A stretch of 64,000 nucleotides of DNA from an uncultured Planctomycetaceae bacterium (GTDB taxonomy: Bacteria; Planctomycetota; Planctomycetia; Planctomycetales; Planctomycetaceae), in contig CAWFGE010000017.1 in assembly GCA_963815195.1 (NCBI GenBank), forward strand, positions 321,785-385,784, read 5' to 3'. Each line of letters starts with the position of its first letter. Within the stretch, counting starts at the first letter, position 1. Both the position numbers and the translations under genes were made by a program. Positions 58,833 through 62,259 of the stretch are shown in pieces. Below the pieces are notes generated by a model. That model saw only the letters and a list, made by a program, of their open reading frames with translations. It searched no databases and was not told the DNA's origin.

Positions 58833-59642
58833 TCATCGTTTGTTCTTTCGATTGAAATGAATTTCGAAATTCCAAGAAATAAGTGCTCTTAAGATTTCGT
58901 TTTGAGAAAAGAAATCGTAACCAAACAAATCGTTATGTCGAATAAAACGAGTTGCATTTTGTCCTTGTGTATTCAAAATCTGAACAACCTCGTTAAGACA
59001 ATTACTAATACCCTCTATAGCCCAGTGAAACTCTTTTACCACGGCCCAGGCATCCTCGTACGATTTCATCGTCCATTGGGACACAAGTTCCGCGCACCTT
59101 TGCAAGTCTCCTTTGGCGTCCCAAAGTTCGACGACGCGATCGTGGTGTTGCTGTGACCCTTGAACATAGCCCAAGCTATTGGCAACTCTAAACAAATTTT
59201 CACTTAAGCTCTGAAACGCAATGATGGTGCCCCCCCCGTCGCAAGTCACGCGTCGGGATTCAGAAATGCAACGTGAATTTCGTAGAGGACTTTTGGGATA
59301 TAAGGTTCCCGTCGTAAACACAACCGATCGAAAAGCGCCAGAGCTAAAAGGTAATGATTCGGCATTAGCGTAAGAAATGTCCAGTTGCCGCCGTTCCCTA
59401 GCTCGCTCAATCATTCGCGTGGAAGAATCAATGCCGGCAACGACATGTCCTTGCGACAGCAACTCTTCCATTATGAGTCCTTGACCAGCGCCGACGATCA
59501 GCACGGGAGAGTCAATAAACCTTTCCACAGTTTTCAAGTCACTAATACCAAAACCAAAATGTTCGACAGCATCCCAAATCTCTGCTCTACAATCCCACAA
59601 CGACTCATCTCGATTTAGAGTTTTTTCCACGTTGTTCATCAA
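58833..59642 (-). CDS. Class I SAM-dependent methyltransferase
   Basis: VLIVGAGQG, GIDSSTRMIERA, ANAESLPFSSGAFRSV; AT-richer than the core genes. Confidence 0.85.
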   Translation of the reverse strand: MMNNVEKTLNRDESLWDCRAEIWDAVEHFGFGISDLKTVERFIDSPVLIVGAGQGLIMEELLSQGHVVAGIDSSTRMIERARERRQLDISYANAESLPFSSGAFRSVVFTTGTLYPKSPLRNSRCISESRRVTCDGGGTIIAFQSLSENLFRVANSLGYVQGSQQHHDRVVELWDAKGDLQRCAELVSQWTMKSYEDAWAVVKEFHWAIEGISNCLNEVVQILNTQGQNATRFIRHNDLFGYDFFSQNEILRALISWNFEIHFNRKNKR

Positions 59643-60085
59643 TGGCTACCTGCGCATTCTTGACCATTCCGAGGGAGGGTTTGGAGAAACCTTGGTTTGT
59701 ATTTGGACACATAATTATTACCGAACTCGCCAGTTGGCTCAATTCGTTCGAGCTCATTCCAAATCCAACATAATGTTTTGATACGAATTGGCTTGTGAGC
59801 CCTTCGTTCAAGTTGCTTGCGAAATTCGGAGAGATCGTTAATCTCAACATGCTCAGGGGAACAGACGTTAATAATTGCAGTTTGAGTCCATCCCCAGGCT
59901 TCCTTCCAGACCTCGGATGCAACGCCCGGAGGGTTCGCTGTTGCAAACTGCGGATAGAGCCTTTCCAGATGCCTATGCTCTTCAATAAAACGCACGGTAT
60001 CGCTCCGCATATAAAGAAAAACGCAGAACGAAACAGCGCCGATGACGCAGCATCCTATCACTATGAATAGCAGCTTTTGACACAT
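59639..60085 (-). CDS. Membrane-anchored hypothetical protein, candidate immunity protein
   Basis: N-terminal TM helix; lies directly downstream of the Rhs toxin gene. Confidence 0.65.
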   Translation of the reverse strand: MCQKLLFIVIGCCVIGAVSFCVFLYMRSDTVRFIEEHRHLERLYPQFATANPPGVASEVWKEAWGWTQTAIINVCSPEHVEINDLSEFRKQLERRAHKPIRIKTLCWIWNELERIEPTGEFGNNYVSKYKPRFLQTLPRNGQECAGSH

Positions 60086-60104
60086 CGAGAAAACACGAAA
60101 ATAG

Positions 60105-60911
60105 CTAGCACGGGGTGTCCGTTACGGTCATACCCGGTCCCAAATACCCACCAATCCTCCTCTGAGGACAGCTTTTGACTAGTGGTGGGTTATTATCCGA
60201 ACTTTGACCTATTGCGTCTGATATGTAATAGTTACCATTCTTGTCTACCCAACAACTTTCAGTATCCGAAATATCAATGCTCACTCCCTTCGACTTAAGG
60301 ATGCAAGCTAGTCTGTTCATTGTGCAGTTTGACGGTGACGAATTATCTCCCCCGCATATGAGCGCTTTAGAACCGTTTGGGAAATTGTAAGGCGCAAACG
60401 TGTCTTTTGGATCATTGGTATTACTGAAATGACCAACTAAAGATTTGCCGTTTGGAAAGGTTATCACCACGCATACACTGGGACCACACCCGCCGGTTCC
60501 GACTACTTCACCTTCATTCAATGGATCACAGAACTGATGTTGCCCACCAATGAGGCCAGCCCCCGTAGGTAACCCACCTGGTCTGGTTGAACCTTTTGGT
60601 ATTTTCGTAGTAACTGTGTTTTCACCGAAATGAGAAATCATGCAGCCTTTGCTAGAGGGACAACAGAATGTTGTTTCCAGCCAACCCATCGTCGCATTGG
60701 GTTTGTTCGCTCCGCATCTACCTTGCGGCTTCTGGGGAGGTTTGGGTTGAGGTTTAGGGAATGGTCCAAGATATAACCCCGACGGATCAACTTTATTCGT
60801 CGGATTATTGCCAGCATACCAATACGAGTTTTGCGGCAATCCTCCGACCAACACGCCATCCTCCGGCATCGGGTCACGCGCAGTAAAACGGCCAAGTTCC
60901 GGCTGATACAT
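60105..60911 (-). CDS. Minimal Rhs core-only protein with C-terminal CheD/CNF1-like domain
   Basis: AAGGAG RBS; MYQPELGRFTARDP...YWYAGNNPTNKVDPSGL; then VGTGGCGPSVCVV...VGHF...ALICGG. Confidence 0.85.
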   Translation of the reverse strand: MYQPELGRFTARDPMPEDGVLVGGLPQNSYWYAGNNPTNKVDPSGLYLGPFPKPQPKPPQKPQGRCGANKPNATMGWLETTFCCPSSKGCMISHFGENTVTTKIPKGSTRPGGLPTGAGLIGGQHQFCDPLNEGEVVGTGGCGPSVCVVITFPNGKSLVGHFSNTNDPKDTFAPYNFPNGSKALICGGDNSSPSNCTMNRLACILKSKGVSIDISDTESCWVDKNGNYYISDAIGQSSDNNPPLVKSCPQRRIGGYLGPGMTVTDTPC

Positions 60912-60936
60912 TTTGGTTCTCCTTCGAGATAGGGAA

Positions 60937-62259
60937 TCAAGTACCCGGCAATCCGGGCGATTGGTGGCGATTGACGATTGGTTGATGGGGCACGCCGGGA
61001 AGGCGCGGGTTTCCTGGTACGGGCAATTTCGCGTGGTTGGGCGATTGCACTCGGCGTTGTTGTTGACAACCGAAACAGGGACACGACGCCGGATGCCCAG
61101 GCAAGCCCGTGTGAGCATCGATGTTTTGCCGGGCGGTTCGGCAGGGAAGGCACTGACACGTTGGGTGGTGATTTGGGATGCCTTGGGGTTCAGCATCTTG
61201 AATCGTGCGGATTTGCCGACAGTGCCAGCAATTGCAAGAACCGCCGTGGTCCGTTGGTCGCGACTGCTCGATCAACCGCACTTTCAGGCAGCGTTCGCAA
61301 CGGCATTGAAGATCGTGTCCGGGAATCGCGGGTTTCGCTTTGGCTCGTTGTTCTCGATTCCAAGCCTCGACCGTCATAATGGACTCACGAATGCGGAGTT
61401 TCTCTTCAATCTCTTTAGTCCGCTTGGCGTGAGTTCCTTTGAGCCTTGGATCATCCGGCGAAAATTTTCGGGCGTAATAGATCGCCTTGAGGCACTCTTC
61501 CCAGTTCCCCAATTCGTAGAAACATTCGCTGCGTTGCACCAGAAAATCGGCCACATCCTCGGCGGCGGTCTGGGAACGCAAATATCGGCCGTGGTTGAAG
61601 TCCACCTCCGTCCACAACTCCGGCCATTGGATGTAATGCGCATCAGAGCGATAGGCGATGCCCTCGCCGGAACCTTCCACGTTGAACCGATCCGGCGGGA
61701 TCCAGAGATGCAGACCCTGCCGGTCCCAATTGATGGTCGTGCCTTTCGGATCATCCCAACGGAAGAAGAGGTGCCCCCGCGTTCCCACAAGATAAAGAGG
61801 AAGGCCAATCCTCCGCCCCACGGCCACATACAAGACGGGCATGGAAGCGCAAGTCCCGCCCTTGCCGCCATCCACAATCATGCCGTGAATAAACACATCT
61901 TCGGGCTGGCAGAAATCGGGGTTGAATTTGCGGTCGGGATGATATGCGACGCCGCAATCCTCTTGGAGCACCTGGAGCAAATACCAACAGAAAAAACGCC
62001 CCAAGGAATTCCCGTAACTGAATTCCGTCAGGGGCAATGCGGGTCCAGGATCAAGCCGGTAGATGTGCCGCCAGATTTCCCATTGCACTTTCTCGGCCCA
62101 TTCGTCGAGGGTATTCAAGATCCCGGCGATGTCGAGAGCTTCCGTCCCCGGCAATTCCTGCGCGGCCCACAGATTGAGCAAAGCAACGTCGCACTCCTCC
62201 AATGCATCCGAGGAAAGCTCCGCCAACTCTTCAAGCGTTTTGATGAGGTCGGCCATCAT
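60937..62259 (-). CDS. Transglutaminase-like (SirB1/Transglut_core-like) protein with TPR-like helices and four HxxxCxCxxC repeats
   Basis: GGTCASMPVLYVAVGRRIG, GHLFFRW, FNVE putative Cys-His-Glu triad; HDLQCRCERC, HGGSCNCWHC, HHPTCQCLPC, HPASCPCFGC. Confidence 0.85.
   Translation of the reverse strand: MMADLIKTLEELAELSSDALEECDVALLNLWAAQELPGTEALDIAGILNTLDEWAEKVQWEIWRHIYRLDPGPALPLTEFSYGNSLGRFFCWYLLQVLQEDCGVAYHPDRKFNPDFCQPEDVFIHGMIVDGGKGGTCASMPVLYVAVGRRIGLPLYLVGTRGHLFFRWDDPKGTTINWDRQGLHLWIPPDRFNVEGSGEGIAYRSDAHYIQWPELWTEVDFNHGRYLRSQTAAEDVADFLVQRSECFYELGNWEECLKAIYYARKFSPDDPRLKGTHAKRTKEIEEKLRIRESIMTVEAWNREQRAKAKPAIPGHDLQCRCERCLKVRLIEQSRPTDHGGSCNCWHCRQIRTIQDAEPQGIPNHHPTCQCLPCRTARQNIDAHTGLPGHPASCPCFGCQQQRRVQSPNHAKLPVPGNPRLPGVPHQPIVNRHQSPGLPGT

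Follow-up and report, generated by a model that had tools for sequence, protein, structure and literature searches.

How does the very end of an Rhs core work when it is encoded as a gene of its own, with no shell around it, directly behind a transglutaminase-like enzyme? The question is raised by four genes near one end of a 64,000-nucleotide stretch of DNA (hereafter the window) from an uncultured Planctomycetaceae bacterium (assembly GCA_963815195.1, contig CAWFGE010000017.1, positions 321,785 to 385,784). On the minus strand they encode, in order, a transglutaminase-fold enzyme (440 aa), a mini-Rhs protein (268 aa) made of a short Rhs tip and a C-terminal domain, a small protein (148 aa) and a methyltransferase. 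We give a probability of slightly over one half to the explanation favored here, a polymorphic toxin system of the peptidase-associated kind: the enzyme would cut the Rhs-derived tag, free a predicted toxin domain and leave its neutralization to the product of the next gene. The genes are tightly packed, with gaps of 25 bp between the first and second and 19 bp between the second and third, and the tip gene has its own AAGGAG ribosome-binding site, all as an original prediction from the sequence had described; the ATGA overlap that it placed between the third and fourth genes is instead TGATG (1 nt), or 4 nt if the fourth gene starts at TTG (coding span 59642/59639-58833).

Linkage of a transglutaminase-fold enzyme to a shell-less Rhs tip

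The pairing of enzyme and tip recurs well beyond the window. Genome, metagenome and order-wide searches gave 117 enzyme loci, which collapse to 86 clusters at 90% identity; 14 of these, with less than 350 nt downstream, were set aside, although a tip is visible in 5 of the 14 nonetheless. In 69 of the remaining 72 non-redundant loci, a shell-less tip lies within 2-484 nt downstream of the enzyme, and the three loci without a separate tip include an in-frame enzyme-tip fusion (L084). A second, phylum-wide set contains a downstream tip for 10/10 full-length family members outside the source genome, and the linkage to variable mini-Rhs genes that the original prediction proposed is thereby borne out. 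None of 18 distant SirB1-like proteins has a tip in the 343-1296 nt examined downstream; on the upstream side, a single one of them has an Rhs core. The 44 genomes without the enzyme gave 51 Rhs-core matches, of which 0 are tip-only, against 3 tip-only cores among 6 in the source genome and 13 among 16 in five genomes that have the enzyme and were selected because they lack YD matches. The enzyme-tip core is a conserved, widespread planctomycete module: matches at E 1e-30, clustered at 50% identity, leave 1,294 representatives of the enzyme family, the enzyme was found in 43 genomes among 398 from the order, and its named records belong to Planctomycetota, with one Verrucomicrobiota cluster as a lead.

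The enzyme matches the Pfam family PF13369 at E 5e-5 and 23.1 bits, slightly under the cut-off of 23.5, which is passed by 8 of 10 fused homologues described below. Its AlphaFold2 (AF2) model (predicted local distance difference test score, pLDDT, 87) has menin as its top VIA-align match (Z 14.4, root-mean-square deviation (rmsd) 4.2, 225 aligned), followed by bacterial transglutaminase-like proteins (Z 9.6 and 9.1) and PNGase. Foldseek at E 0.001 gave no match for this model or for that of the C-terminal domain discussed below, and both fold assignments come from VIA-align. In an alignment of 54 rows, Cys137 is found in 54/54, His163 in 53/54 and Glu or Asp at position 195 in 54/54, a pattern of conservation that points to the Cys-His-acid triad of an active transglutaminase-like enzyme and agrees with the Cys-His-Glu enzyme originally proposed. 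Equally constant in the same alignment are Asn193 (54/54), Arg167 (54/54) and Arg243 (53/54). The window enzyme has neither a signal peptide nor a membrane anchor. Elsewhere in the family, P0145, P0147 and P0188 carry a tandem pair of enzyme domains, the Cys motif being missing from one copy in each, and a subfamily of long homologues (P0130-P0131, P0133-P0143) bears signal peptides.

One alternative, highly improbable and largely refuted by what is observed, is that the tip is no more than a common rhs end, orphaned or broken, and sits by chance behind a SirB1-like gene with which it has nothing to do. Long or orphan rhs genes do occur upstream at five loci, and the source genome contains three longer Rhs cores, two of them at loci split between frames. 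Against a chance arrangement stand its recurrence, the tip's own ribosome-binding site and start, the signal peptides and fusions described below, and the earlier point in the core at which canonical orphans begin. Nor does the tip share any DNA match with the long rhs genes of its genome: in a blastn search of window positions 52001-64000 against the source genome, this part matches only the enzyme-tip loci of contig C8, and none of the rhs genes of contig C15. The window tip thus has neither the DNA homology to a parent rhs gene nor the position behind one that characterize orphan rhs modules. Two of the long rhs loci of the source genome (G000 C15:296153-303429 and 327007-333184) are frame-split and have in common an N-terminal stretch of low complexity that is rich in Ser. 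In tandem arrays at L051 2-7869 and L038 2-8413, one or two cassettes of enzyme, tip and partner come after a long or orphan rhs gene, and in the array at L084 3-6984 it is the fused form that does so.

The Rhs tip and its missing arginine

Residues 1-46 of the mini-Rhs protein match positions 37-76 of TIGR03696 only, the last 40 positions of the core model (E 2.8e-10), and a scan of the whole 268-aa open reading frame (ORF) found no YD/RHS_repeat, PAAR or VgrG family match and hence no YD-repeat shell; the frame upstream of the tip start lies within the enzyme gene. The initial description of a core end without shell, PAAR or VgrG therefore holds, as does the presence of both DP motifs, but the first of them reads DPMP and not DPxG. 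Asp13, Asp42, Pro43 and Gly45 are invariant in 54/54 aligned tips, an alignment from which three rows in the wrong register and loci with an incomplete enzyme-tip pair are excluded, so the two Asp residues and DPxG boundary of the core end are retained. The constant part, never lost in any form of the tip, is YxxxxNPxxxxDPxG.

What is gone is the residue immediately before the tip. Position 1 of the tip profile aligns to residue 651 of YenC2, and position 2 to residue 2105 of a teneurin-like protein. The autoproteolysis residues of YenC2 are given as R650, D663 and D686 in the part of 10.1101/2021.02.03.429655 (citing Busby 2013) that was available, and R2103A is described, in the available part of PMC13018210, as reducing self-cleavage of the teneurin-like protein. 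From the YenC2 register, the tip begins one residue past the catalytic Arg. Arg stands directly before position 1 in 0/74 separate tips, as opposed to 10/10 canonical cores (strict-pattern picks from 33 loci), and the window tip lacks the Arg that canonical Rhs proteins have 13 residues before the first Asp. The spacing of the two Asp residues is likewise freed, at 21-74 in 53 tips (29 in the window) versus 22-24 in the 10 canonical cores. One tip, at L162, retains RNR ahead of position 1.

The precise loss of Arg beside two invariant Asp residues (54/54) is what would be expected if the enzyme stood in for the shell, binding and folding the tip and lending it an Arg in trans, with the tip's Asp pair making the cut and the enzyme's Cys being secondary. 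The constancy of Arg167 and Arg243 and the menin-like peptide pocket are in keeping with such a role. The triad, however, is strictly conserved even in fusions that retain their own Arg, and a subfamily of reduced tips has no first Asp motif, which makes this explanation unlikely. The reduced tips occur at six loci with a divergent enzyme subfamily and consist of the second half of the Rhs core only; in four of the six, this half (~25 residues) abuts a leader directly. At L163, L164, L165 and L166 (G441, G597), the order is a signal peptide and then the ~25-residue second half.

A programmed frameshift joining enzyme to tip was also considered and rejected. The gaps between the two genes fall in all three frames (12/15/24 across 51 loci), and the tip frame, which is open for 120 codons upstream in the window, is closed in many other loci.

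The tip instead begins at its first position by one of two routes. Signal-less tips start with ATG in 49/51 cases, and a Shine-Dalgarno (SD)-like word precedes 45/51 of them, compared with 26/255 background windows; the window tip, which has no leader, is of this kind. In 23/74 tips, a Sec-type hydrophobic leader ending in AxA abuts the same position 1 (AxA is part of the leader label, which makes the AxA count circular but not the N-terminal register), and residue 1 is then M, Y, F, V or H. An N-terminal hydrophobic anchor on the enzyme co-varies with the leader on the tip, 62 of 68 loci being concordant by script. The six discordant loci agree by eye, with a hydrophobic stretch upstream of the probable start in three, an anchor further upstream or cut off in two and a mis-registered leader in one. 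On a quick tree of 54 rows, the compartment label changes three times, at least two of the changes being on strongly supported branches; with so few changes, the independent evidence for this co-variation is modest.

In a third arrangement, ten database proteins (P0125-P0128, P0184, P0186, P0196, P0200, P0205 and P0210) join enzyme, linker, TRYR and tip in a single frame, with unlike C-termini; as the ten are mutually related, they count as about one event. Another four (P0122, P0123, P0129 and P0095) were left out of the fusions, since an internal signal peptide or start Met suggests that they may be read-through or assembly errors.

The exact N-terminal register, reached both by the ATG starts (49/51) and by the 23 leaders, could also reflect ligation. 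The enzyme would recognize the Arg/Tyr junction of an Rhs core, cleave behind the Arg of a carrier, be it an Rhs shell or some other exported protein, and join the resulting thioester to the free N-terminus of the tip. DNA recombination would then not be the only means of exchange, since warheads would be loaded or swapped post-translationally. An Arg directly ahead of position 1 is indeed kept in the fusions and L162, long rhs genes are found upstream of some modules, and YD repeats occur in 33/42 enzyme-positive versus 23/52 enzyme-negative genomes (naive P 8e-4, related genomes not being independent); the puzzle of export would, moreover, be solved. Yet two genomes, G027 (98% complete) and G018 (94%), contain four tips each with no full core and only YD scraps of 69-254 aa, which speaks against an obligatory shell. 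With two of the three long rhs loci of the source genome frame-split, the two motifs separated by inserts as long as 50 residues and reduced tips that could not rebuild a core, ligation is quite unlikely.

Variable C-termini, cognate genes and spare cassettes

Beyond the tip, the mini-Rhs proteins diverge. The C-termini of 66 loci fall into 52 families, with a median of 176 aa and 5% Cys, and the 48 next genes fall into 37 families, 38 of the 48 having an N-terminal hydrophobic segment (including 25/32 of the signal-less class). At E 0.01, Pfam matches are found in 7/57 C-termini and include Ntox44, PT-HINT, phospholipase A2 and AMOP. The polymorphic C-termini with a gene in the immunity position that were originally proposed are thus seen across the collected loci.

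In the window, the C-terminal domain is predicted to adopt the amidohydrolase fold of CheD, NTAN1 and YfiH. Its AF2 model (pLDDT 77) matches CheD in VIA-align (Z 10.2, rmsd 2.9, 116 aligned), with further matches to NTAN1 (Z 8.9) and YfiH (7.1), and the top four rows are all of this fold. A profile of the domain had no match among Protein Data Bank (PDB) sequences, a homologue search gave one match, and all ESM Atlas scores were below 0.9, an NTAN1-type cluster at 0.82 being a lead only. The domain belongs to the largest C-terminal family, of seven members, in which His161 is invariant and the column of Ser145, the probable nucleophile, contains Cys in 4/7 and Ser in the window, L029 and L008. 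The register of this column to CheD comes from a motif taken to mark the nucleophile.

The product of the third gene matched no protein family, and at L008, where the C-terminus is related, the next gene encodes a homologue of it (21% over 98 aa, pairwise E 1e-9). The Ser members whose next gene is readable (the window and L008) have partners of a single family, and those of the four Cys members belong to a different one. By locus, L001, L015, L027 and L098 have another partner family than the window and L008, L092, L095 and L097 have a third, and in three other two-member C-terminal families the partners are unlike. The next gene co-varies with the C-terminus, as the cognate genes of polymorphic toxin systems do. 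In the case of the fourth gene, originally counted as a member of the system, a tblastn search with the methyltransferase against the other enzyme-tip loci collected found no match; it is a passenger on the low-GC cassette, outside the conserved module.

Given that 50/57 C-termini have no Pfam match, that AMOP domains are present, and that the downstream genes include WD40 and other membrane-anchored proteins, one could suppose that the C-termini are secreted or surface proteins for signaling or recognition, with the next genes encoding their partners or receptors. This is rather improbable in view of the Ntox44, PT-HINT and phospholipase A2 matches and of the spare cassettes, low GC, mobile-element context and one-to-one pairing of families, which are the usual pattern of polymorphic toxins as set out in the available part of PMC3482391.

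Spare C-terminal cassettes are found at L001, L008, L015, L138 and L171. In the source genome, contig C8 carries an enzyme paralogue (88% identical), behind which come a tip whose C-terminus is of another kind, a next gene that likewise differs, an insertion sequence (IS) transposase, a second tip cassette, a serine recombinase and DUF2924. The second cassette is preceded by a copy, ~180 nt long, of the last codons of the enzyme, the ribosome-binding site and the tip start, through which it could recombine into an enzyme locus; the junction of enzyme end and tip is, judging from this repeat, a likely recombination anchor (Table 1). The C-terminus and the third and fourth genes have a GC content of 0.45-0.47, compared with 0.57 in the enzyme and 0.60 in the genome.

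Table 1. Coordinates of the features of the enzyme-tip locus within the window
Feature	Position	Strand	Basis
Enzyme of transglutaminase fold (Transglut_core2/SirB1-like) that has TPR-like helices and is predicted to be a Cys protease/acyltransferase	60937..62259	-	Pfam, AF2, VIA-align
Predicted catalytic triad C137, H163, E195 (with invariant N193, R167)	61675..61851	-	conservation
Four H-x4-C-x-C-x2-C repeats, predicted metal-binding, then Pro-rich tail ending LPGT	61066..61317	-	motif scan
Junction of enzyme 3′ end, ribosome-binding site and tip start	60802..60983	-	blastn, 85.7% over 182 nt to C8:115697-115878
Ribosome-binding site AAGGAG of tip gene	60919..60924	-	read from sequence
Complete gene of the mini-Rhs protein (268 aa), whose C-terminal part has 13 Cys and a GC of 0.47	60105..60911	-	ORF
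Rhs tip tag, residues 1-46 (MYQP...RDP...DPSGL)	60774..60911	-	TIGR03696 match
Predicted toxin domain, CheD/NTAN1/YfiH amidohydrolase fold	60207..60608	-	AF2, VIA-align
Predicted immunity protein with N-terminal hydrophobic segment	59639..60085	-	homology, family co-variation
Class I S-adenosylmethionine (SAM) methyltransferase	58833..59642	-	PF13649, E 4e-11; GC 0.45

The locus lies at the end of its contig (C17), past a tyrosine integrase (48513-50018) and an AAA/DnaB-like gene (53038-54387). Together with an unassigned gene of 486 aa (57135-58595), which has weak paralogues on C15 and C12, these suggest an integrative element that reaches the contig end. Directly upstream of the AAA/DnaB-like gene, short tandem arrays (52272-52706; periods 24, 7, 19-20 and 38) could be an origin or iteron region. 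On the other side of the locus, at 62839-63190 and 63229-63940, lie two repeat blocks and a short ORF rich in Lys (62840-63124), which are found on several contigs at 70-88% identity, and the sequence at 63486-63858 occurs again upstream of the C8 enzyme copy. Further away, an intergenic region at 41479-41856 consists of three tandem 126-bp copies, 98% alike. A promoter scan gave 5 matches against 3.6 expected by chance, which is chance level, and a search of a plasmid collection gave no match. Among sequencing runs, none with RNA was listed for the locus, and one DNA run, in which 29 of 30 bins are covered by short contigs, may derive from the source sample.

A proposed cleavage mechanism and its relation to known systems

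Gene linkage, a common compartment, variable C-termini, spare cassettes and a missing Arg are the directly observed parts of the peptidase-associated polymorphic toxin system favored here. The Rhs-derived tag would probably serve as a recognition peptide rather than a working autoprotease, because Arg is absent save in the fusions and one exported locus and because one subfamily lacks the first Asp. The tag would dock between the catalytic and TPR domains, in a pocket resembling that of menin, where Cys137, His163 and Glu195 would cleave at or near DPSG-L. The released CheD-fold domain would likely hydrolyze an amide outside the cytoplasm of neighboring cells, a location suggested by its richness in Cys and by the membrane-anchored partner, and the enzyme-end/tip junction would be where recombination exchanges the warheads. 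Both proteins of the exported form would leave the cell through Sec; for the signal-less form, the best guess is release by lysis or in vesicles, perhaps aided by the His/Cys-rich and Pro-rich tail of the enzyme. An LPG-type end of the enzyme is present at 17/46 signal-less and 0/20 exported loci. The simplest account is that the enzyme assumed a cut formerly made by a shell-bound autoprotease, by analogy with the S8 peptidase of BetaH toxins, and this would explain the intact triad, the common compartment, the fusions and the reduced tips.

Several observations weigh against this explanation. An invariant Asp13 and an exact N-terminal register are unneeded for simple cleavage 45 residues away, and favor a role for the enzyme as shell substitute or ligation onto residue 1. 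Menin, the best structural match of the enzyme, is a non-catalytic peptide binder. Only 7/57 C-termini match Pfam, two of them through AMOP, which is no toxin family, and with Ser in place of the Cys of 4/7 relatives the C-terminus in the window may be inactive. The co-variation of compartment amounts to only 2-3 independent changes, the signal-less form has no export signal, and a search of the source genome (94.6% complete) for VipB and VgrG found no match.

If the explanation holds, the locus represents an undescribed toxin system that works without an Rhs shell, and the Rhs core end is separable from the shell and can serve a partner enzyme as a small tag. What the conserved Arg and Asp residues do would then be directly testable with only two proteins, a system that would also provide the first testable substrate for an active member of the SirB1/menin-like family. 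Planctomycetota would contain a large pool of uncharacterized Cys-rich toxin candidates with their immunity partners, the signal-less form would point to an as yet uncharacterized export route and, should the enzyme ligate, a new protein-joining tool would result. A literature search found no description of the enzyme-tip pair, and a listing in the gene-neighborhood supplements of PMC3482391 could exist.

The closest functional parallel, as far as the available parts of PMC9424270 and PMC13556192 describe it, is S8-PTS (a system of polymorphic toxins with an associated S8 peptidase), which combines a peptidase, a polymorphic toxin with a short conserved N-terminus and an immunity protein in a gene order that the enzyme-tip-partner loci match. 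Its peptidase processes the toxin in trans, the role proposed for the enzyme here. S8-PTS, however, relies on an S8 subtilase and a BetaH domain and is found in Gram-positive bacteria, whereas the planctomycete loci have a transglutaminase-fold Cys enzyme, an Rhs core end as the N-terminus, a signal-less form and fusions. In MafA-MafB-MafI (PMC7738311, available in part), an accessory gene is similarly linked to a compact polymorphic toxin, but MafA is an outer-membrane secretion protein and the accessory gene here encodes a predicted Cys enzyme.

Comparable relationships exist for the individual components. With Rhs/YD toxins and orphan rhs modules, as presented in the available portions of PMC10684867, PMC8765631 and PMC13018210, the loci share the two-Asp core end, the DPxG boundary, a variable C-terminus, a downstream immunity candidate and spare cassettes. 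Unlike those toxins, the tips have no shell, no catalytic Arg, free spacing of the Asp motifs and their own start or signal peptide, and the spare cassettes are anchored on the enzyme 3′ end, whereas orphan rhs modules are anchored on the shell gene. The inactive transglutaminase domains of Rhs toxins described by Zhang 2012 (PMC3482391, in the part available) also lie behind a signal peptide or transmembrane helix and are Rhs-associated, but no longer possess the triad and are part of proteins with a complete RHS-repeat array, while the enzyme here has an intact triad, is mostly a separate gene and has no repeats. Like menin and the SirB1/Transglut_core2 proteins, it combines a transglutaminase-like domain with TPR helices, and it differs from that family in its intact triad and dedicated partner gene. 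The C-terminus in the window is set apart from CheD, NTAN1 and YfiH by its Cys-richness and by Ser in the probable nucleophile column (3/7 members). Taken as a whole, the system falls outside the Rhs proteins, the orphan rhs modules and S8-PTS, and works like a peptidase-associated polymorphic toxin system.

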